A stretch of DNA of 64,000 nt from Kiritimatiellia bacterium (GCA_050950285.1 JBMNHG010000003.1:428337-492336); one strand, 5' to 3'. Shown: positions 36,843-60,559, counted from the stretch's first letter. A program made the numbers and translations. Notes: generated by a model not told the origin, from the sequence alone.

Positions 36843-38054
36843 TTACTCCCCGCCGTCGCCGTAGAGTTCCTCGAGGGCGTCGGCGAGCATGTCGAGGGCC
36901 TCCTCCATGTCGGCGTCGTTGACGTTGAGAGGGGGGATGAAACGCACGGTGTGCGGCCCGGCGACGCAGCAGAGCAGGCCCATGTCGCGGCAGGCGTCGA
37001 CCACTTCCCGGGCCTCGCCTTCCACCACGAGACCGCACATCAGGCCCACGCCGCGCACTTCGAGCACCTGCTCGTATTGGTCGACGAAGACCTGCAGGCC
37101 CTGGCGGAAGAGGTCGCCGGCCTCGGTGGCGCGCTGGAGGAGGCCCTCCTCCTCGATGACGGCGATGGTGGCGAGCGCGGCGGCGCAGGCGAGCGGGTTG
37201 CCGCCGAAGGTGCTGGCGTGGGTGCCGGGGGTGAAGACGCCGGAGAGCTTGGGCGAGGCCACGAGGGCGCCCATCGGCACGCCGCTGGCGATGGCCTTGG
37301 CGAGCGAGAAGGCGTCGGGGGCGGCGTCGGCGCACATCTGCCAGCCGAACCAGTTGCCGGTGCGGCCCATGCCGCACTGCACCTCGTCGCAGAGCATGAG
37401 GATTCCCTTCCCGTCGCAAAGCGTGCGGACGCCGCGCAGGAACTCCGGCGTGGCCGGGATCACGCCGCCTTCGCCCTGGACGGCCTCGAGCATCACGGCC
37501 ACGGTGTGTTCGTTGATGGCGGCCTCGACGCTTTCCAGGTCGTTGAACTCCGCGTAGGCGAAGCCGAGGGGGAGGGGATCGAAGCCTTTCTGGACCTTCG
37601 ATTGCCCCGTGGCGGCGATCATCCCCAGCGTACGGCCATGGAAGGAGTTCCGCATCGTGACCACTTCGTACTTGCCGGCGTCGTGCCCCCAGAGGCGGGC
37701 GAGTTTCACCATGGCTTCGTTGGCTTCGGCGCCGGAGTTGCAGAAGAAGCACTTGCCGCCGAGGGAAAGCTTCGAGAGCTTCTGGGCGAGAAGGGCCTGG
37801 TTCACGTTGTAGTAGAGGTTCGAGCAGTGGACCATCGTCTGGGCCTGCTCCTGGATGGCCGCGACCACCTTCGGATGGGTATGGCCCACGTTCAGCACGG
37901 CGATGCCGGCGGTGAAGTCCAGGTACTGGCTGTTTTTATCGTCCCAGACACGGGAGCCGGAGGCGCGCAGGATCGGCACCGTCGGCGCGTACGTGTTCAT
38001 CACGTACTGGTCGAAGAGGGCTGCGATTTCATTGCTTTCATTTTTCTTGCTCAT
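36843..38054 (-). CDS. argD: Acetylornithine aminotransferase
   Basis: YLDFTAGIAV, NSGAEANE, SFHGRT, DEVQCGMGRTG, LAKAI and HASTFGGNP; in the arg operon. Confidence 0.93.
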   Translation of the reverse strand: MSKKNESNEIAALFDQYVMNTYAPTVPILRASGSRVWDDKNSQYLDFTAGIAVLNVGHTHPKVVAAIQEQAQTMVHCSNLYYNVNQALLAQKLSKLSLGGKCFFCNSGAEANEAMVKLARLWGHDAGKYEVVTMRNSFHGRTLGMIAATGQSKVQKGFDPLPLGFAYAEFNDLESVEAAINEHTVAVMLEAVQGEGGVIPATPEFLRGVRTLCDGKGILMLCDEVQCGMGRTGNWFGWQMCADAAPDAFSLAKAIASGVPMGALVASPKLSGVFTPGTHASTFGGNPLACAAALATIAVIEEEGLLQRATEAGDLFRQGLQVFVDQYEQVLEVRGVGLMCGLVVEGEAREVVDACRDMGLLCCVAGPHTVRFIPPLNVNDADMEEALDMLADALEELYGDGGE

Positions 38055-38925
38055 CGGGAATAATCTCCGTTCCCACGCCTTTGTGCGTGAAGATTTCCAA
38101 TAACAACGAATGGGGCATGCGGCCGTCGACCAGGTGGACTTTGCCCACCCCGTCGCGGATGGCGGCGGCGCAACTGTCGAGTTTGGGCAGCATTCCGCCT
38201 CCGGCGATCCCGGCCTGCCGGAGTGCGGCGATTTCGCCGACACGCAGGGTGGCGACGAGCGACGCGGGGTCGCGGGGGTCGCGCAGGAGGCCCGGCACGT
38301 CCGAAAGGAAGGCGAGCTTCTCCGCGCGGACGGCCGGGGCCAGGGCGGCGGCCGCGGTGTCGGCGTTCACGTTGTACAGCTGCCCGGAAGCGTCGCGCCC
38401 GAGCGGCGTCACCACCGGCACTGCGCCGGCGGCGAGCACGGCCAGAACCGGCGCGGGGTCCACGGCGACCGGGACGCCCACAAAGCCCCAGTCGATCGGG
38501 GCTCCGGTGGAAGGGTCGACTCCACGCTTGCGCTCGGCCAGGAGGATGTCCTCGCCGCGTACCGACGCCGCGGCCACGTGTTTGGCCCGAAGCAGCTTCA
38601 CCAGCTGGTCGTTTACGCCGCCCAGTGCCTCCTCGGCCACGCGGACGGCCATCTCGTCGGTCACGCGCAGGCCGTTCAGGAAGACGGGTTTCACGCCGGC
38701 CTTCTCCATGCTTCGCGAAATGGCCTTGCCGCCGCCGTGCACGAGCACGGGGCGCAGTCCGACGGTCGCGAGGAAGGCGATGTCGGTAAGCACGCGGTCC
38801 ATCGACTCCACATCGTCCATGAGGCTCCCGCCGATCTTGACGACGGCGACGGATCCCTTGAACGCCTGGAGATAGGGCAGCGCCTCGATCAGCGTCTCGG
38901 CCTTTTCGATGTATCGTTGCATCAT
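38038..38925 (-). CDS. argB: Acetylglutamate kinase
   Basis: LIEALPY, VKIGGS, VHGGG, GLRVTD, NVNADTAA and GGMLPKL. ATGA overlap with argJ. Confidence 0.96.
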   Translation of the reverse strand: MMQRYIEKAETLIEALPYLQAFKGSVAVVKIGGSLMDDVESMDRVLTDIAFLATVGLRPVLVHGGGKAISRSMEKAGVKPVFLNGLRVTDEMAVRVAEEALGGVNDQLVKLLRAKHVAAASVRGEDILLAERKRGVDPSTGAPIDWGFVGVPVAVDPAPVLAVLAAGAVPVVTPLGRDASGQLYNVNADTAAAALAPAVRAEKLAFLSDVPGLLRDPRDPASLVATLRVGEIAALRQAGIAGGGMLPKLDSCAAAIRDGVGKVHLVDGRMPHSLLLEIFTHKGVGTEIIPDEQEK

Positions 38926-40148
38926 GTGGTGTAGTCCGCGTTGATGTTCACGTAGTCGCAGGAGAAGTCGCAGGTGAGGACGGTGTCCTCGCCGTCGCCG
39001 AGGCCGAGATCCACGAGCACGTCGAAGGCCCGGCCGGACATCGCCTGCCTGAGGCGGGCGAGGGTGGCTTTGTCGGCCAGGACGCCGCGGTCGTAGGCGG
39101 CGATGCCGCCGTAGGAGATGCGCGCCAGGCGGTCGTCCACCTCGGCCCCGGAATAGCCGGCGGCGGCGATGACCCGGCCCCAGTTGGGATCGCACCCGAA
39201 CCACGAAGTCTTGGCCAGGGGCGAGCGGGCGATGGCGCGGGCGGCGAGGCGGGCGTCGCGTTCGTTGCGTGCGCCGCGGACCGTGACGGTCACGAACTTG
39301 GTGGCGCCTTCGCCGTCCATGGCCATTTTCTTCGCGAGTTCGCGGCACAGGGCGCGGAGCGCGGCTTTGAAGGAGGGGAAATCGGGGTGCGACGCGTCGA
39401 TCTCGGGAGCCCCCGATGCGCCGTTCGCGAGGAGGATCGCGGTGTCGTTGGTGCTGCGGTCCCCATCGACCACCACGCGGTTGAAGCTGGCGTCCACGGC
39501 CTCGCGCAGGGCGGCGTCGAGGGCATCCCGGGCCACGGCGGCGTCGGTGGCGAGGAAGGCGAGCATGGTGGCCATGTGCGGATCGATCATGCCGGAGCCC
39601 TTGCACATGCCTCCGAGCGTCACGGTGCGCCCGCCGATTTCCATGCGCACGGCCGCGTGCTTGGGGACGGTGTCGGTGGTCATGATGGCCCGCGCCGCAT
39701 CGTCCCCGCCGTCGCGGGAAAGGGCGGCGGCGGCGGCCTTGGCTCCGGCTTCGACGCGCTCGACGGGGAGGGGCGCCCCGATGACGCCGGTCGAGCAGAC
39801 CAGCACACGTTTTTCGTCGATGCCGAGGGCGTCCGCCGCGGCCTTGGCCATCGCGCGGGCGGCGACAAGGCCCTGGGGCCCGGTGCAGGCGTTGGCGCAT
39901 CCGCTGTTCACGGCCACGGCCTGGATCCGATGGCCTGCGGCAATGCGTTCGCGGTCGAGCAGCACGGGGGCCGCAGCCACCTGGTTGGTGGTGAACACGG
40001 CCGCAGCGTTGGCCGGTTCGTCCGAGACTAGCAAGGCATAGTCCTTGCGCCCAGCGTATTTGATCGCCGCTTCGACGCCTGCGGCGCGGAAACCGAGCGG
40101 CGAGGTCACGCCACCTGCGGTGGCTTCGAAAAAAGGTTCGTTAAGCAT
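38922..40148 (-). CDS. argJ: Bifunctional ornithine acetyltransferase/N-acetylglutamate synthase
   Basis: NSGCANACTG, STGVIG, IMTTD, KGSGMI.P.MATML, DGEGATK, DPNWGR and YVNINADYTT. Confidence 0.97.
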   Translation of the reverse strand: MLNEPFFEATAGGVTSPLGFRAAGVEAAIKYAGRKDYALLVSDEPANAAAVFTTNQVAAAPVLLDRERIAAGHRIQAVAVNSGCANACTGPQGLVAARAMAKAAADALGIDEKRVLVCSTGVIGAPLPVERVEAGAKAAAAALSRDGGDDAARAIMTTDTVPKHAAVRMEIGGRTVTLGGMCKGSGMIDPHMATMLAFLATDAAVARDALDAALREAVDASFNRVVVDGDRSTNDTAILLANGASGAPEIDASHPDFPSFKAALRALCRELAKKMAMDGEGATKFVTVTVRGARNERDARLAARAIARSPLAKTSWFGCDPNWGRVIAAAGYSGAEVDDRLARISYGGIAAYDRGVLADKATLARLRQAMSGRAFDVLVDLGLGDGEDTVLTCDFSCDYVNINADYTT

Positions 40149-40226
40149 GGGGATGAAGGGGCAAAATGGGATGAAGTTTATGAGTATGAACTCTTTCCCT
40201 GCCCAAGTCGAGCAAAAGCGGACACC

Positions 40227-40400
40227 TACGCACCGCCGACCGCATGGCCGCCCTCGCGTCCAGCTTGCCGGAGGCGCGTCCCTCGCGTCCCCTGCGTCCC
40301 TCGGTCTCACCGCCTGGCACTACGACCCCGCCACAAGCCTTGTCACCACCTGCGGCAACGCCGACGGCTCCGCCGTTTCCTACACCCACACACCCGGCGG
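40227..40400 (+). pseudogene. Decayed RHS/YD-repeat gene fragment
   Basis: Frameshifted pieces Y(D)TADRMAALAS and TAWHYDPATSLVTTCGNADGSAVSYTHTPGG resemble RHS core repeats (T.W.YD..TGL...K.YADG....Y.YT..G). No proper start or length. Confidence 0.6.
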
Positions 40401-40438: not shown

Positions 40439-41758
40439 TCATTCTTCCGGCCATTGAATGGCCTGGGAGATCAGTCGCGGCAGGTCGCTATTCTCGAGCG
40501 GCTCCACGAAGCGCTCGGCGCCGGGGCCTTGCGCGTGGGCGAGCACCTTGGTGGTGCTGTGGCCGCCGGTGGTGTAGCGGATACCCACCCGGGCGTCGCG
40601 CCAGATCGCGGCCTGCTTGACCGCCTTGCGCAGCTCGTCCGTCGGATTGCCTGCGTCGAGCGCCACGCCAAACAACTCCTTGAGCTTGGCACGCTCCTCC
40701 TCCGTGAAGGTCATGCCGAGCTGCTGCTCCAGCGCCTCGAGCAACGACTGCGTGCGCTGCCGGCGCACGGCGGCGGCATCCACACCCTCCAGCTTGACCT
40801 CCAGCACCTTCATGGCCCAGCCCAGATCGGCGAGGGGCGACTGCTGCCCGCGCAGCAACTGAGCCTTCTCCTTGTTGCACGACTCAAGCTGCAATCCGCC
40901 GGTCTCGTGGTCGGCGGCGACAACCACCAGCGTCTCATTGGGGCGTCTGGCCTGGAAGGCCAGCGCAACCTCGACCGCCTCCTCGAAGGCCAGTACCTCG
41001 CGCCAGGTCATGGCGGCGTCGTTGTCGTGTCCGGCATAGTCGATGTGACCGTTCTCGAGCATGATGAAGAAGCCGTTGGGGTTGTCGAGCACCTCGATGG
41101 CCTTGGCCAGGTATTCCGCCAGCGTGGGGGTGGCGGGCTTTGTATTCGGCCAGGCGGTGTAGGGATTGCTATTGACAAAGGTCTGTCCCTCCGGCTTGAC
41201 CTGTGCGAGGACGTTGGTCCCCTCGATCACATTCCAGCCGGCCATGCGCAGGTCGTCGAGCGTAAGCTTGTCATGCACTCCGGCGCCGCCGGCGAAGGCG
41301 ATGCCGCTTCCGGCCAGGTCGTGCCCGATCTCGCGGTGCATCGTGCGCATCTCCCGATGTGCGTAGTGGGCGGCGGGCGTGGCGTCGGTCAGCGGCGAGG
41401 AGGAGATCAGGCCGATCCTGAAGCCCTGCTTCTGCAGTTTCATGGCCAGGCTCCCGACGGGCTGCTTATCCTTGTCCACACCGATGGCGCCGTTGTAGGT
41501 CTTGATGCCGCAGGCGATGGCGGTGCCCGAGGCGGCGGAGTCGGTGATATTGCTGGTGACGTCCAGCGTGCCCATGCGGGCATGAACGGGCATGCGGTCC
41601 ATGGCCAGCTTGCGTCCGGCCACGAGTTCCGTGAGGGCGGCCTGGTCCGGGCCGAAGCCGTCGCCGATGAGCAGGAAGACATACCTCGCACCACCGGCGA
41701 ATGCCATCGTAGCGCAACAGAGAAAGAGGAAGATGAGCAGGAAACGGGGCTTGAACAT
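40439..41758 (-). CDS. Alkaline phosphatase (PhoA family)
   Basis: Signal peptide, IGDGFG, TDSAASGTA (Ser nucleophile), DATPAAHYAH, ENGHIDYAGHDND and ADHETGG. Confidence 0.93.
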   Translation of the reverse strand: MFKPRFLLIFLFLCCATMAFAGGARYVFLLIGDGFGPDQAALTELVAGRKLAMDRMPVHARMGTLDVTSNITDSAASGTAIACGIKTYNGAIGVDKDKQPVGSLAMKLQKQGFRIGLISSSPLTDATPAAHYAHREMRTMHREIGHDLAGSGIAFAGGAGVHDKLTLDDLRMAGWNVIEGTNVLAQVKPEGQTFVNSNPYTAWPNTKPATPTLAEYLAKAIEVLDNPNGFFIMLENGHIDYAGHDNDAAMTWREVLAFEEAVEVALAFQARRPNETLVVVAADHETGGLQLESCNKEKAQLLRGQQSPLADLGWAMKVLEVKLEGVDAAAVRRQRTQSLLEALEQQLGMTFTEEERAKLKELFGVALDAGNPTDELRKAVKQAAIWRDARVGIRYTTGGHSTTKVLAHAQGPGAERFVEPLENSDLPRLISQAIQWPEE

Positions 41759-41837: not shown

Positions 41838-41888
41838 AGGGGCACGGGTTTTCCAACCCGTGACACGGACAGGAAGGTCCGTGCCCCT
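41838..41888. repeat. REP-like composite palindrome (two inverted hairpin units)
   Basis: AGGGGCACGG...CCGTGCCCCT outer inverted repeat enclosing CACGGGTT-ttcc-AACCCGTG and CACGGAC-aggaag-GTCCGTG. Confidence 0.65.
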
Positions 41889-41953: not shown

Positions 41954-42676
41954 TTAGTCGTGGGTCGTCATTGTGCTTTTCGCCCCGTCCAGGCGGCTCA
42001 GGACGGGCGGCAGGGGGCGGCCGAGCCACGGATACTTCGCGCCGGCGACAACGTTGAAGGGGAGATGCTCCACAGGGGAATCGCCGACGAGCTTGGCAAA
42101 CGCCGCGCGATCCCGGGGCGTGTCGTTGACGCCGGGGACGTCCGGAATGCGGATGCAGAACGGGACGCCCGAGGTCTTCAGCCAATCGAGATTGCGGAGC
42201 ACCACGCCGAGGTCGCCGCCGCACCACGCGCGGAAGGCGTCGGGGTCGTGGTGCTTCAAATCCTGGTAGACGAAGTCCATCCGCCCGACCACCGCTTGAT
42301 AGACTTCAAGCGGCGCGTAGCCGCTCGTCTCGATCGCCAGATGCAGCGACGCCGCCTTCAGCAGCGGAACGAGCGCCAGAAGAAAGTCCGCCTGGGCGAG
42401 CGGCTCGCCGCCGGAAAACGTGACGCCGCCGCCGGATTGCATCAGGATGTCGGCGTTCTTCAGCAATTCGGCCGCCAGGGCGTCGGCGTCCCAATCCACG
42501 CCGCAGGTGGCGCGCTCTCCGTTCGCCCGGGTCATCGTCTCGATCTCGGGCGACTGTCCTTCGGGGTTGTGGCACCAGGCGCACCGCAGGGGGCAGCCCT
42601 TGAAGAACACGGTGGTTCGCACCCCGGGGCCGTCATGGAGCGTAAACTCCCGAATCTCGAACACGCGTCCCTTCAT
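41954..42676 (-). CDS. Glycyl-radical enzyme activating enzyme (radical SAM), no ferredoxin insert
   Basis: HDGPGVRTTVFFKGCPLRCAWCHNPEG, GGVTFSGGEPL, IETSG, DLKH and PGVND. True start MKGRVFEI at 42676. Confidence 0.95.
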   Translation of the reverse strand: MKGRVFEIREFTLHDGPGVRTTVFFKGCPLRCAWCHNPEGQSPEIETMTRANGERATCGVDWDADALAAELLKNADILMQSGGGVTFSGGEPLAQADFLLALVPLLKAASLHLAIETSGYAPLEVYQAVVGRMDFVYQDLKHHDPDAFRAWCGGDLGVVLRNLDWLKTSGVPFCIRIPDVPGVNDTPRDRAAFAKLVGDSPVEHLPFNVVAGAKYPWLGRPLPPVLSRLDGAKSTMTTHD

Positions 42677-42693
42677 GCGCCGTCCGTCGCCTT

Positions 42694-44781
42694 TTACGAC
42701 GCCGTCGCGCCGAGTTCCACGCGCTGGATGATCTGGTTTTGATAGCAGGGGTCGAGCTCGACGAAATAGCCGCTCCATCCCCAGACGCGGACGATCAGGT
42801 GGCGGTGGTTTTCGGGATGCTGTTGCGCGTCGAGCAGCGTCTCGCGGTTGATCGTGTTGATCTGCAGTTGATGGCCGCCGCGGTCGATGAAGAACTTGAC
42901 GAGGTGCGCCACTTTCTCGACGCCGTCGGGATGGGCGAACGCCGAATCGTGGAGTTCGAGGGTGAGCGGCCCACCATTGCACACGGGGCTGAGGTCGGGC
43001 GCCGTGAACGAACGGACGACGGAGACCGGCCCCTTCACCGGCACGCCCAGCGACGGCGCGTAGTTCGCGGGGAGCGGCTGTCCCTTGAGCCTGCCGTCCG
43101 CGGAGGCCGGCACCTCGCGCGCATGCCAGATGTAGTACATCGCGCTGCCCGTGCCGGGCCGGTAGATTCCGCCGCGCCCGTTGCGCTTGCCGTCGAAGGC
43201 GCGCCCCCAAAAGGCGACGAGCCGTTTCGCAAGGTCGTCGGCGCGGGGGTCGGCGTTGCCCATCTTCGGCGCCGCCTTCGCCGCGGCGAGCACGTCCGGG
43301 CGTCCGGCGTAGTCGGTGTCGAGAAAATCGACAAGCTCGGACAACGTGACAAGCTGCTTCTCGAACACCAGCTCGCGCACGGAGGCGAGCGAATCGACCG
43401 CCACGGCGATGCCGGTGCCGTGGATGCCGAAATTGTTGTACTTCGCGCCTTGGCTGATGTCGCGCGCCTTGTCGATGCAATCGCGGGAAATCACCGAGGC
43501 GAACGGCCCGGGGAGGATTTCGACATACGCATACTTTGCCGCCAGCGCATCGGCGCGGCGCTGGATTTCCGCCTCGAACGCGGCGACCACCTCGTCGAAC
43601 GCCTTCGCGGAAGCGGCGACCTGGCGGAGCGCCGTGTCGAGACAGCCTACGAAAGAGACGGCGTCGATGTTGTTGACGTCCATCCCGCAGCCGGGAATAA
43701 TGAACTCCCAGCAGGCGGCGACGGTGTAGTCGCGCGCGTCCTCGGGGTCGTACCCCCACCTCTCCAGCGCGGGGATCACGACATCGTCGTTGGCGTACTG
43801 GGGGAAGCCAAGGCCTTTCTTTGTCAGCGCCGTCCCGAGCTTGAAGATCTCGAGGGGCGTCCGGCTGTCGACGCGCAGGTTGATCTTGGGATCGACGAGC
43901 TTCACGTCGCCGCACGCCTGGAGGCAAAGGCGCGAAAGCGCGTTGAACGCGGTTTCGCCGTCGGCCGGATGGCGCGGCTTGCCGCCGAGCATCACGCTCT
44001 GCCCGTTGTCGCCCTGCTGCACGCCGATGTAGAGGTCGCTGTCGCGGTTGCACGCGATGAAGAACTCCTGCAACTTCTCCAGCGCGGCATCGTCGGTCAG
44101 ACGCCCCGCCTGGATGTCGGCTTCGTAGTAGGGGAGGAGATACTGGTCGATGCGCCCGAGACCGCAGTGGTATTCCCCTTCGCACCACAGCGCGTAGTGG
44201 AGGATGCGCAGGCTCTGCAGCGCCTCGTGGAAGGTCCGCGCCCCCTTCGCCGGCACCTGCGCGAGCGTTTCCGCGATCGTCGCCAGCCCTTTCTCCTCCG
44301 CAGCCCGTCGGTACCGCGCCGCCAAATCCAGGACGGCCTTGACGCAGCGGATCGCGTTGCCGAGGAAGTTCACGCCCTCGGCGTCGCCCTCCGCCTTCGC
44401 GCGCGCCAGCCGCGCCTCCATCTCCGCGAGCCGCGCATCGAGCCCGTCGCGGATCGTCGGCTCGAAATCGGCCGTGAAGTTGAAGACCACGCCCTTTTCG
44501 GCGAACGCCGTTCCCGTCGCCTTTCGCGCGTCCAGCTCCTCCTCGGTGTGGAGGTCGGGGATCTGCCGCACGGTGCGCAGGAAGGCGATCGTTTCGCCTT
44601 CCAGAAACGCCGGCGTCTCGGCCTTCAGCATTTCCTCGAGGCCGATCCGCGCGCGCGTCGTGTCGTCGAGCCCCTCGGCGACGAACCGCTTGAGCAGCGG
44701 CCGCCAATCGACGTCGCGTCGGAATGCGTCCTGCGCCTTGTCAAACGTCCTGTCGAGCAAGCTCTTGATTCGATCGTTCAT
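42694..44781 (-). CDS. Glycyl radical enzyme (PFL-family fold) of unknown reaction
   Basis: ARTFHEALQ, LGRIDQYLLPYY, GFPQYAND, Cys loop VAACWE, KMGN.D, ASADGR and Gly loop HLIVRVWGWSGYF; adjacent activase. Confidence 0.93.
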   Translation of the reverse strand: MNDRIKSLLDRTFDKAQDAFRRDVDWRPLLKRFVAEGLDDTTRARIGLEEMLKAETPAFLEGETIAFLRTVRQIPDLHTEEELDARKATGTAFAEKGVVFNFTADFEPTIRDGLDARLAEMEARLARAKAEGDAEGVNFLGNAIRCVKAVLDLAARYRRAAEEKGLATIAETLAQVPAKGARTFHEALQSLRILHYALWCEGEYHCGLGRIDQYLLPYYEADIQAGRLTDDAALEKLQEFFIACNRDSDLYIGVQQGDNGQSVMLGGKPRHPADGETAFNALSRLCLQACGDVKLVDPKINLRVDSRTPLEIFKLGTALTKKGLGFPQYANDDVVIPALERWGYDPEDARDYTVAACWEFIIPGCGMDVNNIDAVSFVGCLDTALRQVAASAKAFDEVVAAFEAEIQRRADALAAKYAYVEILPGPFASVISRDCIDKARDISQGAKYNNFGIHGTGIAVAVDSLASVRELVFEKQLVTLSELVDFLDTDYAGRPDVLAAAKAAPKMGNADPRADDLAKRLVAFWGRAFDGKRNGRGGIYRPGTGSAMYYIWHAREVPASADGRLKGQPLPANYAPSLGVPVKGPVSVVRSFTAPDLSPVCNGGPLTLELHDSAFAHPDGVEKVAHLVKFFIDRGGHQLQINTINRETLLDAQQHPENHRHLIVRVWGWSGYFVELDPCYQNQIIQRVELGATAS

Positions 44782-46214
44782 GCCTCTCCTCTTGTGTTCG
44801 GCTTGGTTTTGCCGATGAACTCGAGAAAGTCCACCAAGTCGTCCTTGTCGAACACCCGTGCGCCGGTTCCCTGCGATTCGATCTCGGCGAGGTTGTCGTC
44901 ATTGATGACGTCGAGGCGATCGGGGTAGCGGTACTGGAGCCCGGCCTTCGGGCGACCGTGGTAGCGGCAAATCGGTTCGCCGCCGGAAATCCAGCGGTTC
45001 TCCGCCATCTCCAAGTCCTCGCGCCAGTCGTTGAAAAAGCGGAAGAGGCAGTCTTCGGACTGGGAGAACACATTGCGGGCGACCCGGAACCCGCGCGTGT
45101 CGGCCGTGGTGTCGTAGAACATGAGGTGCGCGGCGTTGGGGTTCCAGCGCTGGACGTGCCCCCAGCCCTTGCCGGCGTCGCGAAAGACGTTGTCTTCCAC
45201 GCGCACGTTTTCGGTGACGGCCCCGTCGCCCTGCTGCCAGTATTCGTAGGAGTACTCGCAATTCCAGACTTCGTTGTTTCGCCAGACGATGTTCCGCTGC
45301 GCGGTGTCGTCGAGGCTCGACTGGTTGGTCAGGCCGGCGTCCCAGCATTCCCACACGTGGTTGGACTCGACGAGGACGTCCTCCGCCGCCCCCCAGAACT
45401 CGATGCCGTTGCCGTAGCGGACGCCGTCCCCCTTGTTGTTGAAATAGAGGTAGCCGCCGCCGATCCAGGAGATGTCGCAGTTGCGGATGACGATGCGCTT
45501 CGCCTGATCGCCGCCGAAACCGTGCGCGGCCGAGTAGCGGATGGCAAGCCCGTCATAGACGACGTCGTGCATGTGGGCCTGGTTCACGCCGTTGATTTTC
45601 TCGGCCAGCTCGATGGACTTCCAGCGCAAGGCCGGATTGGAAGCGGATTTCACATGGATGCGAAACGCCGCCGGATCGCACCAGAAGTCCCGGTCGCGCG
45701 TCAGGTCGTCGCGACGGTTCCGCTTGAACAGGCATCCCGAATCGCCGTGGTCGAGGATCACGTTGCCGATGTCGGCCGCGGCATCGGTTCCGGCGCTCCA
45801 CGTTCCATCGGACTCGCGCCGCCAGTCCTCCGGCCGGCTCCGGTCGTAGCTCGGTTGGATGGCGGGCTTCGCCCCGGCGCCATACGCGCCATACGTGATC
45901 GGGTGCCCCGGCTTGCCCGAGCGCGGCTGCAACTGCCCGCGCCACACCCCGCCGCGTTTGAACAGCACCGTTGCGCCGGGGTTCAACGCCATGGCGTTCA
46001 CCTCGTCGAGCGTGATGCTCTCGTCGATGTGGAAGACGGCATCCGACACGGGGCGCGCCATCGCCGCCTCGGCTTCCGCCGCCGCTTCCTCGGCCTTTCG
46101 GCCGGCCACGAACTTCCGGATCCCGGCTTCCACGACCCAATGGCCTTGGGGCTTCTTGGCGACATTCGGCGCAGGTGCGTTGCGGCTGCCATTCGTGCTC
46201 TGTTTAAACATCAT
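44778..46214 (-). CDS. Right-handed parallel beta-helix protein (pectate-lyase-like fold), no signal peptide
   Basis: PGATVLFKRGGVWRG, YGAYGAGAKP, IRNCDISWIGG, RYGNGIEFW and DAGLTNQ. AAAGGA RBS before 46214; stop overlaps the GRE start. Confidence 0.78.
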   Translation of the reverse strand: MMFKQSTNGSRNAPAPNVAKKPQGHWVVEAGIRKFVAGRKAEEAAAEAEAAMARPVSDAVFHIDESITLDEVNAMALNPGATVLFKRGGVWRGQLQPRSGKPGHPITYGAYGAGAKPAIQPSYDRSRPEDWRRESDGTWSAGTDAAADIGNVILDHGDSGCLFKRNRRDDLTRDRDFWCDPAAFRIHVKSASNPALRWKSIELAEKINGVNQAHMHDVVYDGLAIRYSAAHGFGGDQAKRIVIRNCDISWIGGGYLYFNNKGDGVRYGNGIEFWGAAEDVLVESNHVWECWDAGLTNQSSLDDTAQRNIVWRNNEVWNCEYSYEYWQQGDGAVTENVRVEDNVFRDAGKGWGHVQRWNPNAAHLMFYDTTADTRGFRVARNVFSQSEDCLFRFFNDWREDLEMAENRWISGGEPICRYHGRPKAGLQYRYPDRLDVINDDNLAEIESQGTGARVFDKDDLVDFLEFIGKTKPNTRGEA

Positions 46215-46248
46215 GGATTCAGTCCTTTGCACAAATTCTTTGTTGTCC

Positions 46249-47577
46249 TCATCCGTCCAAACGAGGAAGTTTGTCAGGCATGGTTGAATCGATGTTCGCA
46301 ATGCCTTTTGGAAGGTGGCAGGCCACGCATTCGACGCCGGTGGAGTCGGCGATGCTCATCGCATGTTTCCAGCCCGGGTGGTCGGTTGTCCAGTGGAGTC
46401 GGACGCCGTCGAAGACGACGTCGCGCGCCTTGTAGACGCGGAAAGCGCAATCGGTCGATCCGCGCCCCCACCATTCGCCTCGGACGTGCCCCGGGTAGGG
46501 GCCCACGCCGCCGCAGCGCATGTCGAGATCGCGTACGCGGATGTCGGCGATTTCGCCGCCATCGATGCCGATGATGTTGAACGTGCAGCGCACGTCGGCC
46601 GAAATGTCGGCAAGCGACACGCGGCGGATGTGGCGCGGCGTCGCAAGCGGCGGGTCGGTATCGAAGTTCGCGAGCTTGATGTTCGCCAAACGGTGCGCCT
46701 GGACCTGCAGATGGCGGAAGGAGACGTCCTCGATGTCGACGCCGGTTGAGCCGGCTCCGTACCGTGCGACGAGGCAGATCGCCGTACGGGTGTCCTCGAT
46801 CACGAGATTGCTGAAAAGACAGCGGCGGATGAGTCCGTCTCCGACGCCGACGCGGATCGCGTTGTCGTTGTAGCTGGAAAGGATGCAGCCGGTGACGACG
46901 ATGTTCTCGCACGGGCGCGCCGTCGTGAGACGCTCGCCGTTGGCGCGGACGGCGATCGCGTCGTCGCCGGTGCGGATGATGCAGCCGGAGACGACGACGT
47001 CGCGGCAGCAATCGATGTCGATGCCGTCGTTGGTCGCCTGGCGCTTTTCGCCGTCGATGCGGAGGCGGCTCAGGCGCGCGTTCTCGCATCCGTGGAGGAA
47101 GAGGTGCCAGTAAGGGGCGTTGCGCAGCTGGAGGCCATCGACGACGAGGCCCCTGCATTCGCAGAGGAAGACCATCTGCCCCGGGCGGCCGGGCTCCGGG
47201 AGGTAGGCCGGCGTCGTGTCGGAGAAACGACGATTCCAGAAGCCGCAATCGCCGTCGATCGCGCCGCCGCCCGTGAGCGACACGTCCTCCACGCCAACGG
47301 CGGAAAGGAGGTGTGCGCCGGTCACGGTCTCCTGTGTGAAGACTCCGTTTTGCGGGCAGTAGTCGTCGGCGTTGTAGTCGGCGCGGTCGCGGCTCGCGAG
47401 GAGCGTTGAGCCGCACTCGAGGTGCAGTCCGCCATGGCTTCGCAGGTGGATCGTGCCCGAGCGGTAGGTTCCGGGCGGGAGCAGGGCCACCCCGCCCGAG
47501 TCGACTGCGCGCTGGATCGCCGCCGTGTCGTTCGCAATGCCGTCGCCGACGGCGCCAAAGTCTTTTACGTTTTTCAT
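46249..47577 (-). CDS. GH28-family glycoside hydrolase (polygalacturonase-like), cytoplasmic
   Basis: NVKDFGAVGDG..NDTAAIQRA, PPGTY..GTI.L, NAPYWH, NDGIDID and TGDDAIAV. Confidence 0.85.
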   Translation of the reverse strand: MKNVKDFGAVGDGIANDTAAIQRAVDSGGVALLPPGTYRSGTIHLRSHGGLHLECGSTLLASRDRADYNADDYCPQNGVFTQETVTGAHLLSAVGVEDVSLTGGGAIDGDCGFWNRRFSDTTPAYLPEPGRPGQMVFLCECRGLVVDGLQLRNAPYWHLFLHGCENARLSRLRIDGEKRQATNDGIDIDCCRDVVVSGCIIRTGDDAIAVRANGERLTTARPCENIVVTGCILSSYNDNAIRVGVGDGLIRRCLFSNLVIEDTRTAICLVARYGAGSTGVDIEDVSFRHLQVQAHRLANIKLANFDTDPPLATPRHIRRVSLADISADVRCTFNIIGIDGGEIADIRVRDLDMRCGGVGPYPGHVRGEWWGRGSTDCAFRVYKARDVVFDGVRLHWTTDHPGWKHAMSIADSTGVECVACHLPKGIANIDSTMPDKLPRLDG

Positions 47578-47622
47578 AGGTCCAAGATCGGGAGGTTGGA
47601 TGTCCAAAGTCCAGGGTCGGGG

Positions 47623-50600
47623 TCAGTTGCCAAGGCGGATCCTCGGCACGTCGGCGAATCCCGGAGTCGCCTTGAGGCGCGGCGGGAGTTCGGCCGAGGC
47701 CGAGCCGGCCCGGGTGTTGAAGCGGTAGGTTCCGGGGCGCGGGAAATCGAACCATGCGCGGCCGTCACGGTCGGCGCGGACGCCCGTGCGCTCGCCGGAG
47801 GCGGAGATGGACCAGACGTCCGTGCCGGGAGCGGCGCCCTCGACGACCGCCTCGGCGGCGCCGCCCTCCCGCAACGCGGGCTGCGGGCGCAAGGTGTCGC
47901 GGTAGGCGTCGTTCACGGCGTTGCGGACATGCGAGGGATGGTCGGGGTCGAACCAGTTGATCATGTCGCAGCCGTATTGGTCGTTGTCGGTTCGCACGTG
48001 CAGGGGCTTCTCGCCGCGGCCCGAGAGCGAGGGCCAGGCCACGGCGCTCCAGCGGTGCTCTTTGAGCTCGGAGCGTTTGTAGCCCCACGGGTTGCCGAGA
48101 CCGGTCTCGTCGGCCTGGATGAAGCCGTCGAGTCCGAGGCCCATCGTGATGAAGCCGGGCACGCTCTCGTCGATGTAAACCGGGATCACGGCACGGACGA
48201 TGCGCGCCTTCTTCTCGACCTGTTCGGGCACGGCGCCGATGAAGTTGTCCCACGCGCCGTAGCTGCAGTAAAGCGTCTCGCCGAAGAGCGCCGGACGCCA
48301 GGCGTAGAGTTCGGGCCAGTTGCGGACAAGCTGCGCGACGTCGAAATCCGGGTAGTGGTAGTTGGCGGTATCGCACGGCGGCTCCTCGAACCACCGCGCG
48401 GAGGGGCTGTGCGTGCCGACGTCGCCGTCGCGCGTGAGGACGCGCGTCGGATCGAGCGATTTCACGAACTTCTCGTAGAGCGCGCCGATGCGGTCGTTGC
48501 GAACGTTGAACTCGGCCTTGTCGGCGGTGTCCCACGCCTGCGTGAGGATCTCGTTGTCGGTCGAGAGCACGACGACGGACGGGTGGTTGCGGATCCGCAA
48601 GTGCCAACGCCGGTAGTTGGCGAGGTTCCATGCGTGCGCGGCAGTGCCTTCCCACTGCTCGAAGGGGAGGAAATTCTCCTCGTAGGGCGTTGTCTCGGTC
48701 GCGTCGTGGATGCGCGGATACATCTGCGCGTAGACGAGCATGCCCATGCGGTCGGCGTCTTCAAGCGACTTGGCGTCGACGTTGGGCGACGAGATGCGGA
48801 CGATGTTGATGCCGTCGGCGCGGATGAGCGGCCAATAGATCTCGCGAAAGCGCGACTGCATGTCCAAGCGGTCCTGCCCGGTCGTGTCGCCCTGCAGGTG
48901 GATGTGGCGTCCGTTGAGGAAGAAATCGGTCTGGAATATCCAGAACTCGCGGAATCCGAAGCTTTCGCGGTGGCGGTCGACGAGGCGCCCGTCCGCGTAA
49001 AGGTCGGTCACCAGTTCGTAGAGATCCGGGCTGCCGTATGCGCCGCCGATGCCCCAGACCTTCGGGTCGGCCCAGCCGGAGGCGGTGCGGAGTGTCGCGG
49101 CGGAGCCGGGCGCGAGCGTCGCGCGCACGGGCGGGAGCCGGAGCCGGACGCGGTCGCCGGCCTCCACAACGGAGGCGCGGACTTCGACTTCGACGGCGGA
49201 CGGGGCGGCGTTCGTGAGGTCGATCTCGGCGTCGAGCGCCGCGCGCCGCCAGCTTGGACGCGCCCACACGCCGGCGACACGAACGCCCGAGGGCACGTAG
49301 TCGATGTAAACGCTTCCGCGCAACCCCTCGCACGAGTGCTCGCCCCAGTCCTGACGCGACCACTCGACCTCCAGTTCGTTGGCGCCGTCCACGAGGCCGG
49401 CGGCGAGCGGGACGCGCACCTCGCCGCAGATGCCGTCGTAGGCGCCGCAGACGGTGCCGTTCACGCGAACGACGGCGCGGCCGACAATGCCCTCGGAGAC
49501 GAACTCCGCCGTGCCGCGTCCATCCCAGTCGAACCGGGTGCGGTAGAAGGCGCGCGGCTCGGTGATGCAGGCATGGAACGACGTCTCGCCGTAGGCGGGG
49601 TCTGGAAACTTCGCGCTGTGCGGGTCGCCGGGGACGGACGCCTTCGCAGGCACATGCCAGCCGACGAAATAAGGAGAGCTCTGGATTCCCGGCACGGATG
49701 CGGGATGCCACGTGGCGCGGTCCTTCGAGACCTCCCAGACGCCGTTGAGGCAGAGTCTCGAACGGAGCGGAGCCGGAGGGACCGCGAGCGGCTCGTCCAG
49801 CGACCGCGGCGCGGCGGCGACCGCCGCCGCGCGCTCACGCGCATAGATCGCCTCGCGAGCCGCATAGGCTGCGGCGCGCGCGGCCTTGGCGTCTTCGCGC
49901 TGTTGCGCGAGCGCGGCAACACGCGCCTCCAGCGCGGGGATCGTCGCATTGCGCAACGTTCCGATTTCCCGCGCGAGCGCGACGTTCTCCTCCCGCAACG
50001 CGTCGATCGGACGCGGCGGATGCAGCCGCGCGCCGAGCGCGGCGATCGCCTCGTCGCCCGGATCGGCGGAAACGGCGAGTCCGGGCACGGGCGCGCCGTC
50101 CTTGTCCAGAAGCTGCACGCAGAAGCCGCCGCCGCCGCGCCGGTTGCCGATCTTGACGAGCAACACGTTGAGGCCTTCGGCGAGGCGCGCGTCGTACAGG
50201 AAGTTCCCCGGGATGACACCCTGCGACGAGAACCGCTCGCCAATCACGCGGCCGTTGAGAAACACCCGGTTGTCGTCGTCGGAACCGACGGCGACCACGA
50301 CGTCGCATGCCTTGGGCGCGTCAATGTAGCAACAGGCGTAGGCGACGAACCATTCCTCGACCGGCGTGAAAAATCCGTCGAAATAGATCACGCCGTTCGC
50401 GAACGCATGGGGCTTCCAGGCGACGTCGATTTCACGCGTCTCCTTCCAGCCCCATTCGTTCACCGCGCCGACGCCGGCGATGAGTTTGGCCTTGTCCGCG
50501 ACGAACGTGGCGCGAGTGGCCTGCCCCGGTCGCGGCAACGCATCGCTTTCGCCGCCGAACGGCACAAGCAGGTCCGCGCGGATGCCCTTGCCCGTGCCGT

Positions 50601-50757
50601 CCTCCTGCTGCTCGTTCGGGAACGGCCCGGCGACAAGCCAGTCGAGAAGGAACCCCTTGTCGTCCGGCGCCCCCGCCGGCAGCGCTCCCGATTCCGTTGG
50701 GAAGAACGCGAACGGCAGGGGAAGGATCCAGGGAAGCAGGAAAGACGCGTTTCTCAT
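47623..50757 (-). CDS. Secreted GH2-family glycoside hydrolase with N-terminal PA14-like domain and leucine-zipper linker
   Basis: WLVAGPFPN...GSDD...LNG...GLNVLLVK domain, then LNGVW, W...PDLY, FGFREF...FFLNG, ADRMGMLV and RNHPSVV..STDNE. Confidence 0.85.
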   Translation of the reverse strand: MRNASFLLPWILPLPFAFFPTESGALPAGAPDDKGFLLDWLVAGPFPNEQQEDGTGKGIRADLLVPFGGESDALPRPGQATRATFVADKAKLIAGVGAVNEWGWKETREIDVAWKPHAFANGVIYFDGFFTPVEEWFVAYACCYIDAPKACDVVVAVGSDDDNRVFLNGRVIGERFSSQGVIPGNFLYDARLAEGLNVLLVKIGNRRGGGGFCVQLLDKDGAPVPGLAVSADPGDEAIAALGARLHPPRPIDALREENVALAREIGTLRNATIPALEARVAALAQQREDAKAARAAAYAAREAIYARERAAAVAAAPRSLDEPLAVPPAPLRSRLCLNGVWEVSKDRATWHPASVPGIQSSPYFVGWHVPAKASVPGDPHSAKFPDPAYGETSFHACITEPRAFYRTRFDWDGRGTAEFVSEGIVGRAVVRVNGTVCGAYDGICGEVRVPLAAGLVDGANELEVEWSRQDWGEHSCEGLRGSVYIDYVPSGVRVAGVWARPSWRRAALDAEIDLTNAAPSAVEVEVRASVVEAGDRVRLRLPPVRATLAPGSAATLRTASGWADPKVWGIGGAYGSPDLYELVTDLYADGRLVDRHRESFGFREFWIFQTDFFLNGRHIHLQGDTTGQDRLDMQSRFREIYWPLIRADGINIVRISSPNVDAKSLEDADRMGMLVYAQMYPRIHDATETTPYEENFLPFEQWEGTAAHAWNLANYRRWHLRIRNHPSVVVLSTDNEILTQAWDTADKAEFNVRNDRIGALYEKFVKSLDPTRVLTRDGDVGTHSPSARWFEEPPCDTANYHYPDFDVAQLVRNWPELYAWRPALFGETLYCSYGAWDNFIGAVPEQVEKKARIVRAVIPVYIDESVPGFITMGLGLDGFIQADETGLGNPWGYKRSELKEHRWSAVAWPSLSGRGEKPLHVRTDNDQYGCDMINWFDPDHPSHVRNAVNDAYRDTLRPQPALREGGAAEAVVEGAAPGTDVWSISASGERTGVRADRDGRAWFDFPRPGTYRFNTRAGSASAELPPRLKATPGFADVPRIRLGN

Positions 50758-50775
50758 GGTGGACGGATCTCCTCG

Positions 50776-51384
50776 CTAGGGATCGGACTTCTCGTAGACC
50801 TTCACGTTGCGGAACCAGACCTTGCCGGTGCCGCCGCCGGGGCCGTAGGAGAGCATGAAGCCCCCGCCGTGCGGAACGGCGTACTCGAAGGCGACCGGCG
50901 TCCAGTCGAAAGTCCCCGCGCCGACGTTGGCGCTCGGCCAGTTCGGCGAAGCCCCCGCAACCGGCGCATAGGCGCCAAACTTCAGGTTGCGCGTCCCGAC
51001 GAGGTTTTCGCACTTCACGTCGGCCTCGCAACGGTAGGTGCGGCCGGGTGCGAGCTTGAGCCAAATGTCGCGGTTCTTCTGGTTCCCGGGCGTCGCGTCG
51101 AAGAAGCACGGCGCATTCGTCTCGTAGGCATGAAGAAGCCGCCAGCGGGGTTTGGCGGACGGCGGCTCGGCGCGTTCGCCGGTCATGAGCTCGGCGACCG
51201 TCTTCTCGATGCGAATCGATCGCTCGAGCCGCTCGCATTCGTTGCTCAGTTCGGCTTCGCGCGTCCGCAGCGCGTTTTTCTCCGCCCGGAGGCGGGTGTT
51301 CAGCTCCTGTTCAGGCGATGATGCGGCGAAAGCGGCGAGGGCGGCGAGTGGCATGAGAAAAAGAAGGCGGGAGGGAAGGTGCAT
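50776..51384 (-). CDS. Small secreted protein: leucine zipper plus CBM4/9-like domain
   Basis: Signal peptide, heptad L repeats, then LAPGRTYR...GTFDWT...GTGKVWFRNVKV. Confidence 0.7.
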   Translation of the reverse strand: MHLPSRLLFLMPLAALAAFAASSPEQELNTRLRAEKNALRTREAELSNECERLERSIRIEKTVAELMTGERAEPPSAKPRWRLLHAYETNAPCFFDATPGNQKNRDIWLKLAPGRTYRCEADVKCENLVGTRNLKFGAYAPVAGASPNWPSANVGAGTFDWTPVAFEYAVPHGGGFMLSYGPGGGTGKVWFRNVKVYEKSDP

Positions 51385-51408
51385 GGATCGGGGTTCGGAA
51401 GCCGGGAA

Positions 51409-53106
51409 TCACTTCATGTAGTCCTCGGAGACGACGCGACCGAGGAGGTAGTATTTGGCGCTCCCCGGATACCAGAGGACGCCTTCGTCGCCGAGCATCG
51501 TGTAGCTCGTGTAGTAGGAGTTCCAGTGCGTGTTGGGCTCGACGAGTTTTGGCGTGCCGTCGAACGCAACAGGCTGATGCGCGCCGGGCACGTAGCGTCC
51601 GGGCACGAGGTAGAGCGGGCCGCGGTGGTCGGTGACCTCCAGGTGGAAGAGGCCGAAATAGAGGCCGCTCGCGGCCTCGGGCCCCTTCCAGTCGTAGCAT
51701 GGGCAGGGGGAGACGGAATGCGCGATCGCGGAACCTCCGTCGCGAACGAGGAGCGGTTCGGTCTTCGACCACGTGCGCCCGTCGTCCGCGCTCGCGCTCC
51801 AGACGGGCGAACCGCCCGACGCGCGCATCACCGCGAAAAGGCGCCCGTCGGGGAGCTTCATGAGCGAGGGCTCCTCGCAGATCGCCTTGCCCTCGGCGTC
51901 GGGCTCCACGCGAAGCATGTCGTCGCCCACGGCGTAACGCGAGATGCGGATGTCGCGCACGGGCGGATCGTCGTCGATGTTCTCGTATTCCCAGATCTCG
52001 CATCCGCCGGCGCGAGAGGAGCCGACAAGGAACCGGCCGTCCCTGCCGAGGCGCAGCGGGCGCTGCCAGTTGCACCACCAGCGGGTGCCGGCCTCGCCGC
52101 GCGCGATCTCCCCCGGGGTGCGCAAGTCGATCGGAACCTTCTCCGGCTCGCTCCATGTCAGGCCGCCATCGTCGCTGTAGATGCCGGCCATCGACTTGTC
52201 GGCCGGGCTCCACAGGCAGTAGAGGCGGCCGCTTCTCGAGAGCATCGGCTGCTGCCACGAGGCCGTGTCGACGCGCTCGGCGCGGTTGGTCGTCATCGAA
52301 CCGGCGAGCGCGCGCGGCTCGCTCCAGGTGAGGCCGCCGTCGACGGAGCGCGAATAGGCGGTGTGGTGGTCCGCGGCCGTCTCCAGCGTCGCCTGCGTCC
52401 AGAACGCATGGAAGACGCCGCGGGGGTCGTCGCGGATCACCTGGAAGTGGTCGTTGTAGGTGTCGTGCGCCCCGGCTTTCACCTGCTCCCAGCGGCGTTC
52501 GGGGCGCTTGGGGATGTAGACCGCGAAGTCGGGCTTCGTGGAGAGGATGCCGCTCACGACGTCGGGCGGATAGGACGCGCGGAGGCGCTCGGCAAGCGCG
52601 CGGTTTCGCGCGGTCGGGCGCTGGACGGGGAGGTTCGAGCCGTCGAAGCCGAAGATCACGGCCCACTTGCCGAACGCGAATGTCTCGCCGGCCTCGACTT
52701 CCTTGCGCCAGACGGTCGCGACATCAACGAGGTTGCGACCCCACGCCTGGAAGGGCGCGACCGAATCGTCGCGGACGAACCCGGCCGCGCGCAGCGCCTT
52801 CTCCTGGGAGACGTTCGACGTGCGCTGCGCGGGCGACAGGACGAAGAGCGCGCCCGCCCGTTCGACCGTCGCCGCGGAGCCGTCGTGGAACGAGCCGCGC
52901 AGGAAGAGTTCGCCCTTGAGCGCGTCGGGGATCGAGCCGAGCGCGAAGGAGCGGTCGCGGAAGAGCAGCGCGCCGGGAGTGAGCTCGGCGGCGGCGAGCG
53001 GCCCGGGCGCGAGCATCGCGCGGGGCGTGTCCGCCGCGTCGGCGGGCGCGGCGATCAGGGCCGCCGCCAAAAACGGAATCGGGAAAAATGCGGGGAGTCT
53101 TTTCAT
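51409..53106 (-). CDS. Secreted sialidase-like BNR/Asp-box beta-propeller (GH33-like)
   Basis: Signal peptide, Asp boxes SVDGGLTWS, SDDGGLTWS and SADDGRTWS, and EEPSLMKLPDGRLF..MR. Confidence 0.8.
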   Translation of the reverse strand: MKRLPAFFPIPFLAAALIAAPADAADTPRAMLAPGPLAAAELTPGALLFRDRSFALGSIPDALKGELFLRGSFHDGSAATVERAGALFVLSPAQRTSNVSQEKALRAAGFVRDDSVAPFQAWGRNLVDVATVWRKEVEAGETFAFGKWAVIFGFDGSNLPVQRPTARNRALAERLRASYPPDVVSGILSTKPDFAVYIPKRPERRWEQVKAGAHDTYNDHFQVIRDDPRGVFHAFWTQATLETAADHHTAYSRSVDGGLTWSEPRALAGSMTTNRAERVDTASWQQPMLSRSGRLYCLWSPADKSMAGIYSDDGGLTWSEPEKVPIDLRTPGEIARGEAGTRWWCNWQRPLRLGRDGRFLVGSSRAGGCEIWEYENIDDDPPVRDIRISRYAVGDDMLRVEPDAEGKAICEEPSLMKLPDGRLFAVMRASGGSPVWSASADDGRTWSKTEPLLVRDGGSAIAHSVSPCPCYDWKGPEAASGLYFGLFHLEVTDHRGPLYLVPGRYVPGAHQPVAFDGTPKLVEPNTHWNSYYTSYTMLGDEGVLWYPGSAKYYLLGRVVSEDYMK

Positions 53107-60558: not shown

Positions 60559-60559
60559 C

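Follow-up and report, generated by a model that had tools for sequence, protein, structure and literature searches.

A short glycyl radical enzyme closing a glycan-degradation gene run in a Kiritimatiellia bacterium: a predicted member of an uncharacterised clade linked to sugar use

What reaction would a glycyl radical enzyme (GRE) perform when its gene stands at the end of a run of glycan-degradation genes, and on which substrate? The question is raised by a 64-kb stretch of DNA from a Kiritimatiellia bacterium, which was analysed over its whole length and is called the window below. The host genome (G000) has a GC content of 68%, a size of 4.05 Mb in 12 contigs and a completeness of 99.35%, and its closest proteins in public sources are named Kiritimatiellia. 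The GRE of the window, which carries the loop motifs AACWEF and RVWGWS, is predicted to be functional and to belong to an uncharacterised, monophyletic clade of GREs that are short (about 690 amino acids) and have their own activase, a reading to which a probability of roughly 0.55 is given. The genes on which the argument turns are the following.

42694-44781, minus strand: glycyl radical enzyme, 695 amino acids (Pfam PFL-like 2e-88, Gly_radical 3.2e-17)
41954-42676, minus strand: GRE-activating radical SAM enzyme, 240 amino acids (Pfam Radical_SAM and Fer4_12, TIGR02494)
44778-46214, minus strand: right-handed beta-helix protein, 478 amino acids, with an ATG common to its homologues (Pfam Beta_helix)

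The first-pass annotation of this DNA had placed a 695-residue GRE and a short activase at the end of a co-oriented run of about 14.4 kb, and the Pfam-supported gene models agree with it. The run extends for 14.45 kb on the minus strand, from 56404 to 41954, and encodes a protein with four LamG domains, a BNR protein, a 202-residue secreted protein (p202), members of glycoside hydrolase families 2 and 28 (GH2, GH28), the beta-helix protein, the GRE and the activase. The stop codon of the beta-helix gene overlaps the GRE start as ATGA, as had been described; the Shine-Dalgarno-like sequence AGGAGAGG precedes the overlap, and the activase starts 17 nt past the GRE stop.

The Cys loop of the GRE reads AACWEF (VAACWE), with Cys357 encoded at 43711-43713 and Glu359 following it, while the Gly loop reads RVWGWS, with Gly668 encoded at 42778-42780; both codons are exactly where the earlier annotation had put them. 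The C-terminus, RVWGWSGYFVELDPCYQNQIIQR, matches the GRE fingerprint RVxG[FWY]x6-8[FL]x4Qx2[IV]x2R given in a 2026 review of the family (PMC13450708), parts of which are drawn on here. According to these parts, only pyruvate formate lyase (PFL) and TdcE carry a Cys pair on the Cys loop, and the CXE motif is common to GRE 1,2-eliminases and PflD/YbiW isomerases (PMC13450708). The single Cys of the window enzyme, together with a score of 53.1 bits against the PFL model TIGR01255 (cut-off 994.2), bears out the earlier statement that it is not PFL, and its CXE motif would group it with the eliminase and isomerase GREs. All other family models likewise scored below their cut-offs: HypD 278 bits against 1100, HpsG 246 against 1000, CutC 235 against 1050, the PflD-type equivalog NF007437 258.2 against 1109, and the broad PFL2/glycerol-dehydratase subfamily model TIGR01774 311.5 against 678.2. 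The models for HypD, CutC, HpsG/HpfG and the indoleacetate and 4-hydroxyphenylacetate decarboxylases together gave 182-278 bits against cut-offs of 1000-1150. Identity to GREs of solved structure is 22-26%, so the high-identity clustering with a characterised class that had been named as the outcome speaking against a new enzyme was not found. The window protein is thus a predicted GRE of no CHARACTERISED class, that is, of no characterised GRE class.

Its best single-sequence match is glycerol dehydratase (GD) from Clostridium butyricum (1r8w), a GRE 1,2-eliminase (E 6.6e-76, 26% identity, Foldseek TMq 0.89). Both enzymes have a CXE Cys loop, an RxDQY segment, a DGR motif and the Gly-loop fingerprint, and the alignment pairs Cys357 and Glu359 with GD Cys433 and Glu435, Gly668 with Gly763, and His205 with His281. 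The window enzyme differs in having CWE instead of CVE and RVWGWS instead of RVAGYS, and it is about 90 residues shorter than GD and its relatives, mainly through N-terminal deletions. Further into the active site, GD Gln636 aligns with Arg541 and GD Tyr640 with Gly545, which is conserved in the clade. In GD, His164 protonates the leaving hydroxyl, and the roles of Cys433, Glu435 and Gly763 are also described in the parts of the review used here (PMC13450708). The position of His164 is occupied in the clade by an invariant Asn (Asn101), so that the proton-donor His of the dehydratases is missing from it, whereas PflD and propanediol dehydratase do have a His there.

In keeping with the 10-stranded barrel and catalytic Cys finger loop of the superfamily, structure prediction gave a confident GRE fold (AlphaFold2 pLDDT 90.8, pTM 0.91), which superposes on GD, CutC, PflD, propanediol dehydratase and HypD at TMq 0.88-0.90 with no clear favourite in Foldseek. 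Taken together, 1,2-propanediol dehydratase of Roseburia inulinivorans (5i2a), CutC, HypD, IslA and HpsG share this fold and the Cys/Glu/Gly set (TMq 0.81-0.90), but none of them has the pair of CWE and RVWGW. The PflD/YbiW isomerases (8yjo, 8id0, 8id7), which open the rings of 1,5-anhydromannitol-6-phosphate and 1,5-anhydroglucitol-6-phosphate, share the CXE motif with the clade and are the only characterised GREs acting on a sugar skeleton. They are 23-25% identical to the window enzyme, and the clade lacks about 55 residues of the N-terminal region of PflD. A profile built from 22 clade members, in which C357-W358-E359 was present in 22 of 22 aligned sequences and Asn101 and His205 were invariant, scored 428.9 bits with PflD (8yjo) and 426.9 bits with GD, which is a tie. 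The active site of the clade is distinct both from the dehydratases and from the known sugar-phosphate isomerases. As for the earlier proposal that Cys-X-Glu points to eliminase-like chemistry, the motif itself aligns with GD and PflD, but elimination can no longer be singled out, as isomerase chemistry of the PflD/YbiW kind is as open as elimination.

The two loop motifs are widely conserved. RVWGWS was found in all 119 close homologues (76-97% identical, 685-729 amino acids), and AACWEF is in the ten commonest motif combinations, which cover 86 of the 119; the 118 listed homologues of Kiritimatiellia type are 76-84% identical to the window enzyme and one further homologue is 97% identical. 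Among the 150 best representatives clustered at 50% identity, the CWE/RVWGWS pair is kept down to about 36% identity, and weaker relatives have RVWGF with CWE or CYE. Both motifs could be parsed in 81 of these 150 representatives, and RVWG was present in 45 of the 47 CWE sequences. Such co-variation suggests packing of the Trp residues of one loop against those of the other, and it gives substance to the earlier remark that Trp residues at the radical loops are unusual: they are a signature of the clade. The phylogeny that had been proposed as a check was computed with FastTree from 97 full-length GREs, which included five paralogues from the host genome and consisted of sequences other than the characterised references. 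All 29 RVWGW rows fell into one clade with a Shimodaira-Hasegawa-like support of 100, and the two motifs mark what is, on this tree, one monophyletic clade.

Searches of species-representative genomes with back-translated motif patterns returned at least 600 stretches, 597 of which were confirmed, so the clade is present in at least 597 species genomes. The 80 loci retained represent Kiritimatiellia, Lentisphaerae, Planctomycetes (Thermoguttaceae), Clostridia, Bacteroidales, Spirochaetes and Opitutales, and most of them belong to assemblies from the rumen, the gut or digesters. Within the relatives of the host the spread is patchy: orthologues at least 71% identical were detected in 5 of 40 relatives, a class-wide sample of 151 genomes gave 5 with such an orthologue, and the same-genus genome G001 (92% complete) has none. 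The literature searched on GREs yielded no paper on the AACWEF/RVWGWS clade. The classification, 1,2-eliminase and isomerase sections of the 2026 review name no enzyme matching it, and the review states that whole GRE clades still await experimental validation (PMC13450708); passages of a Kiritimatiellia preprint make no mention of radical enzymes or formate.

The host genome holds eight genes with a Gly_radical domain in about 4 Mb, including that of the window. The other seven (C8:44361-46688, C2:193106-195553, C8:109569-112091, C2:578130-581285, C2:281271-283469, C8:636453-639002 and C4:1951-4353) encode proteins about 24-34% identical to the window GRE. Their loops read SCVE, GCVE/RVAGYS, ACVE/RVTGFT, GCTE/RVGGYA and GCQE/RVSGLS, two being unparsed, and related genomes gave up to 10 matches. 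The GRE repertoire of Kiritimatiellia is large and diverse, and it is not discussed in the papers searched.

The activase has a CX3CX2C motif and exceeds the TIGR02494 cut-off (199.5 bits against 174.35). It is of a short form that lacks the Cys-rich ferredoxin-like insert and has one extra Cys after CX3CX2C. An activase adjoins the GRE in 62 of 80 related loci (tblastn). Clade activases occur in two forms, as seen in 63 open reading frames (ORFs) parsed across 86 loci: 30 have the Cys-rich insert, with 7-10 extra Cys, and 33 are without it, with 0-4 extra Cys, the latter including that of the window, those of most Kiritimatiellia and some from Bacteroidales.

To characterise the surroundings of the clade, neighbouring ORFs of at least 90 amino acids from the 86 loci were clustered by blastp with single linkage, and one representative of each recurrent cluster was annotated; the family counts rest on these representatives. 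Removal of one duplicate left 85 loci, and the counts below refer to genes within 8 kb of the GRE.

Activase motif: 59/85 loci
Any sugar transporter: 47/85 loci
Sugar-porter transporter of the major facilitator superfamily (MFS): 30/85 loci
CUT2 ABC ATPase, with RbsB-like binding proteins: 10/85 loci
CUT1 permeases: 8/85 loci
LacI regulator: 12/85 loci
AraC regulator: 7/85 loci
GH51 alpha-L-arabinofuranosidase: 10/85 loci
Melibiase-like protein: 10/85 loci
Beta-helix family of the window: 8/85 loci
GalM-type mutarotase: 7/85 loci
GH127: 6/85 loci
GH36: 5/85 loci
FGGY kinase: 4/85 loci
FucI/SftI-like isomerase: 3/85 loci
GH78: 2/85 loci

Of the 85 loci, 54 contain one or more genes for a transporter, a glycosidase or a mutarotase, and the one sugar-porter MFS protein that was checked is XylE-like (TIGR00879, 375 bits against a cut-off of 238). 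Examples of the importers are a XylE-like MFS protein at L085:7796-9133 and an RbsB-like binding protein at L087:1940-2944. Counted over all 86 loci, with the duplicate still included, a GH106-like cluster occurs in 6. The annotated neighbours include no microcompartment, choline, hydroxyproline or sulfonate genes and no phosphotransferase system (PTS) component, and the annotated cluster representatives include no shell protein, PduP or PduL. The transporters beside the clade are of the non-PTS, free-sugar type and are accompanied by the mutarotase, in contrast to the phosphosugar system of PflD/YbiW. A link between the clade and sugar use holds across phyla. The first-pass annotation had asked whether the GRE co-occurs with carbohydrate-active enzymes: the sugar-use context is supported, but of the partners it had named, GH28 and GH2 are not conserved, as a homologue of the window's GH28 lies near the GRE in just 1 of 80 loci and a homologue of its GH2 in 2. 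Its proposed substrate, a sugar or sugar acid, can also be narrowed, since sugar-porter MFS proteins, RbsB-like ABC systems and GalM-type mutarotases make a neutral sugar likelier than an acid.

For the beta-helix protein, Pfam gives only Beta_helix (28 bits), NCBIfam gave no match, and its weak sequence match in the PDB is the GH136 lacto-N-biosidase 6kqs (E 3e-4). Its AlphaFold2 model (pLDDT 91.3) has tied fold matches, Z 21-26, to alginate lyase 6kfn, glycoside hydrolase BT_1002 (5mqp), rhamnogalacturonan and pectate lyases, GH136 lacto-N-biosidases and GH28 polygalacturonases, and the protein is best described as putatively carbohydrate-active-like, of no assigned family. The gene order is beta-helix, GRE, activase in the window and in genome G040, and GRE, activase, beta-helix in G035 and G028. 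Three loci encode secreted proteins of about 1040-1060 amino acids (L034:240-3425, L041:581-3691 and L042:307-3417) that join a melibiase-like barrel of the clan GH-D type to a beta-helix; the latter forms the C-terminal half, is 65-68% identical to that of the window, and is followed by genes for an MFS transporter, the GRE and the activase. This fusion indicates that the two unassigned domains are functionally linked. One more beta-helix homologue is fused to a GH43 domain. Judged by gene order and homology, the beta-helix protein is a predicted specific partner of the GRE in the lineage of the window.

A copy of the three genes lies on contig C47 of G040 (locus L029). It is 96.3% identical to the window in nucleotide sequence over exactly 4212 bp (window 42015-46226, L029 1970-6181), beginning 12 nt before the beta-helix gene and stopping just short of the far end of the activase gene. 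A second common stretch of 282 bp covers the start of a GH2 gene (window 63631-63912, L029 1-282), the two stretches being 96-98% identical in DNA. Between them the window has 17.4 kb (46227-63630, nine genes for CAZymes, a regulator and unknown proteins); L029 has 1.7 kb in that place, holding a beta-lactamase-family gene, and no counterpart of the block with GH28, GH2, p202, BNR, LamG, the XylR-like regulator, an 866-residue protein and an AXE1-melibiase. The remaining genes of L029 either have counterparts in the host genome at 30-45% amino-acid identity or lack them. Because G040 was assembled by binning, it is uncertain which organism carries the contig, but the different flanks are certain, and the sharp borders are those of a recent transfer or rearrangement. 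The identity over 4212 bp, combined with different flanks, indicates that the three genes act as one transferable unit and that the genes from GH28 to LamG are accessories of the host genome. GH28, which had been counted in the possible cytoplasmic module, is absent from this copy, which begins just after the GH28 stop, and it lies outside the conserved cassette. Nearly identical cassette-like DNA is also present in bioreactor, anaerobic-digester, landfill and wastewater metagenomes: 12 runs contain at least half of the sampled words of the cassette, and 20 runs from 17 studies contain at least part of it.

With this context, the enzyme is best read as a putative cytoplasmic CXE-type eliminase or isomerase acting on a neutral monosaccharide derived from glycans. 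The CXE motif and the other catalytic residues suggest the mechanism common to eliminases and PflD/YbiW isomerases, in which a thiyl radical abstracts hydrogen and a C-O bond is cleaved with the help of Glu. The activase would put the radical on Gly668, from which it would pass to Cys357 as a thiyl radical; Cys357 would take a hydrogen from a hydroxyl-bearing carbon, Glu359 would deprotonate the hydroxyl, and the adjacent C-O bond, to a hydroxyl, ring or ether oxygen, would break. The residues W358, W667 and W669 at the radical loops may form a stacking platform for the sugar ring. Importers of neutral monosaccharides, exo-glycosidases, sugar regulators and, in seven loci, a mutarotase point to a free aldose or a close derivative as the substrate, a neutral compound that exo-glycosidases would free from glycans of the pectin or arabinogalactan type. 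In most lineages it would enter the cell via a sugar-porter MFS or ABC system, and in the host genome it would be produced within the cell by the co-transferred beta-helix enzyme.

Several observations weigh against this reading. The exchange of GD His164 for Asn101 means that the leaving group may not be handled as it is in the dehydratases. In 31 of the 85 loci none of the sugar-related neighbours is present, although some of these are short contigs, and at several Kiritimatiellia and Lentisphaerae loci the GRE is without an adjacent activase and lies amid housekeeping genes (methyltransferase, phosphatidylserine decarboxylase, Sua5/YciO, HisA/F-like and peptidase M16). At one locus (L108) the GRE gene is instead accompanied by genes for an alcohol dehydrogenase, an aldehyde dehydrogenase and a split transketolase, an arrangement that also fits a small aldehyde-forming eliminase. 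Canonical sugar routes are common in the 25 carrier genomes considered (AraA in 15, GalK over the cut-off in 18, RhaA in 23 and UxaC in 22), which leaves no obvious pathway gap for the GRE to fill. Family searches of the host genome, in spite of its completeness, found neither a sugar-porter MFS (TIGR00879) nor an aldose 1-epimerase (PF01263), and tblastn gave no hit for the MFS, the mutarotase or the melibiase-like domain. The host would then need intracellular release of the substrate, which fits a cytoplasmic beta-helix enzyme and GH28, and monosaccharide uptake would proceed by other systems, AraA, GalK, RhaA and UxaC being present.

Two narrower proposals were considered and rejected. Displacement of a standard sugar route by the GRE does not agree with AraA, GalK, RhaA and UxaC in most of the carrier genomes, and L-arabinose as a named substrate was suggested by AraA being the least complete of these, which is too weak a ground.

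Other functions can be set against the same data. The enzyme could be a variant of glycerol or 1,2-propanediol dehydratase, working as a dehydratase of diols or polyols. It would then act not on the sugar itself but on a small intermediate in the fermentation of deoxy-sugars or pentoses, for example 1,2-propanediol, lactaldehyde, glycolaldehyde or a C4-C5 polyol. Both dehydratases are among its best sequence and fold matches; the neighbours include makers of such aldehydes, namely the FucI/SftI-like isomerase in 3 of 85 loci, FGGY kinase in 4 of 85 and a class II aldolase; GH78 in 2 of 85 and the GH106-like cluster in 6 of 86 loci, RhaA in most carrier genomes and the two dehydrogenases of L108 agree with this too. 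Yet the clade has Asn for GD His164, and its neighbours are sugar-porter MFS or RbsB-like ABC systems and a mutarotase instead of diol facilitators, reductases or microcompartment genes. Moreover, the conserved Gly545 would widen the pocket relative to GD, where Tyr640 presumably has a functional role. A dehydratase of small diols is accordingly held to be unlikely.

An isomerase of the PflD/YbiW kind, opening the ring of a free or phosphorylated anhydro-sugar to a 1-deoxy-ketose for further conversion by a kinase and a class II aldolase, draws on the CXE motif held in common, on the rank of PflD as the top solved match to the clade profile, tied as it is with GD, and on two loci (L085 and L087) in which the GRE stands with an isomerase, an FGGY kinase and a class II aldolase of the ketose-bisphosphate type. 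The PflD-type equivalog score, 258 bits against 1109, is hard to reconcile with it, as are the scarcity of kinases (4 of 85 loci) and the lack of PTS components among the annotated neighbours; a mutarotase would be useless for a sugar without an anomeric hydroxyl, and anhydro-alditols are not released by exo-glycosidases. Such a function is rated as quite improbable. The public annotation as a 'pyruvate formate lyase family protein', the 76-84% identity among the 118 listed homologues and the housekeeping surroundings of some loci could be taken to mean a formate-lyase-like housekeeping enzyme of central fermentation. With a single Cys on the loop, 53 bits where the PFL model requires 994, and an occurrence limited to 5 of 151 genomes and missing from G001, this is extremely improbable.

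An eliminase or isomerase acting on a glycan-derived monosaccharide remains the preferred reading, and the clade probably performs a new radical step in sugar breakdown. It is well delimited by its two-motif signature, its monophyly, its occurrence across six major lineages (at least 597 species-level genomes) and its context of sugar import and exo-glycosidases. If the reading is correct, the anaerobic breakdown of plant glycans in animal guts, rumens and digesters would include a step not recognised so far, and a free monosaccharide as the substrate would be a new substrate class for GRE chemistry. A more specific version, put forward tentatively and regarded as possible but doubtful, is that the clade comprises the first GREs acting directly on a free, unphosphorylated, glycan-derived aldose, perhaps in an anomer-specific manner, as a cassette-borne entry route for plant-wall sugars. 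Anomer specificity would explain the adjacent GalM-type mutarotases. Hydrogen would be abstracted at or next to the anomeric carbon, and an adjacent hydroxyl or methoxy group would then be lost, so that a galacto- or arabino-configured or methyl-ether sugar would become a deoxy-lactone or deoxy-keto sugar with no need for oxygen or cofactors. Bacteria of the gut, rumen and digesters would thereby have a new and widespread anaerobic way of using plant-wall sugars, passed between lineages as three genes that include a putative new beta-helix glycosidase.

The rest of the run and the sites at its two ends are as follows.

46249-47577, minus strand: GH28 glycosidase, ATG at 47577 (PF00295, 55.5 bits)
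47623-50757, minus strand: GH2 (Pfam)
50776-51384, minus strand: p202, 202-residue secreted protein without a family (no Pfam match)
51409-53106, minus strand: BNR/sialidase-like protein (Pfam BNR_2)
53132-56404, minus strand: protein with four LamG domains (Pfam Laminin_G_3 x4)
56517-56488, minus strand: promoter-like site (consensus scan)
56536-57810, minus strand: XylR-like regulator with a periplasmic-binding-protein-like sugar domain and an AraC helix-turn-helix, directly upstream of the run
41843-41862, minus strand: terminator-like hairpin of 8 pairs with a T-run (consensus scan only; the best such site on the strand)

The earlier list of the run thus holds for the LamG, sialidase-like, GH2, GH28 and beta-helix genes, but the label 'CBM', which had been given to p202, is not confirmed. 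Judged by eye, N-terminal signal peptides are present in the LamG, BNR, p202 and GH2 proteins and missing from GH28, the beta-helix protein, the GRE and the activase, as had been noted before. The XylR-like protein is a possible regulator of the run. The hairpin just past the activase (41862-41843) likely marks the end of the transcription unit, and with it the alkaline phosphatase and arginine-biosynthesis genes further downstream look like separate units; they are unrelated to the GRE module. The phosphatase is secreted and encoded at 40439-41758 on the minus strand, past the terminator-like site, and 36843-40310 on the same strand contains an ArgJ-family gene, a class-III aminotransferase gene and a further ORF (38038-38925) from gene calling based on GC content at third codon positions (GC3).

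A 917-codon ORF at 41954-44707 on the minus strand was rejected as a gene: it arises where the activase frame stays open through the GRE gene in DNA of 68% GC. Shadow ORFs of this sort are common on both strands of the window and gave spurious conserved clusters in the comparison of loci. A search of the window and seven loci for riboswitches with Rfam returned nothing above the gathering score.

On the other side of the regulator, the glycan-degradation region contains the 866-residue protein (57958-60558, plus strand), which, like p202, belongs to no Pfam or NCBIfam family. It is followed on the plus strand by an AXE1 esterase fused to a melibiase-like domain (60623-63616) and, from 63632, by a GH2 of 1137 amino acids (L114:69-3482) and a GH78-like rhamnosidase (L114:3479-5173). 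These AXE1-melibiase, GH2 and GH78-like genes continue the region, which makes the window one part of a larger polysaccharide-utilisation region.

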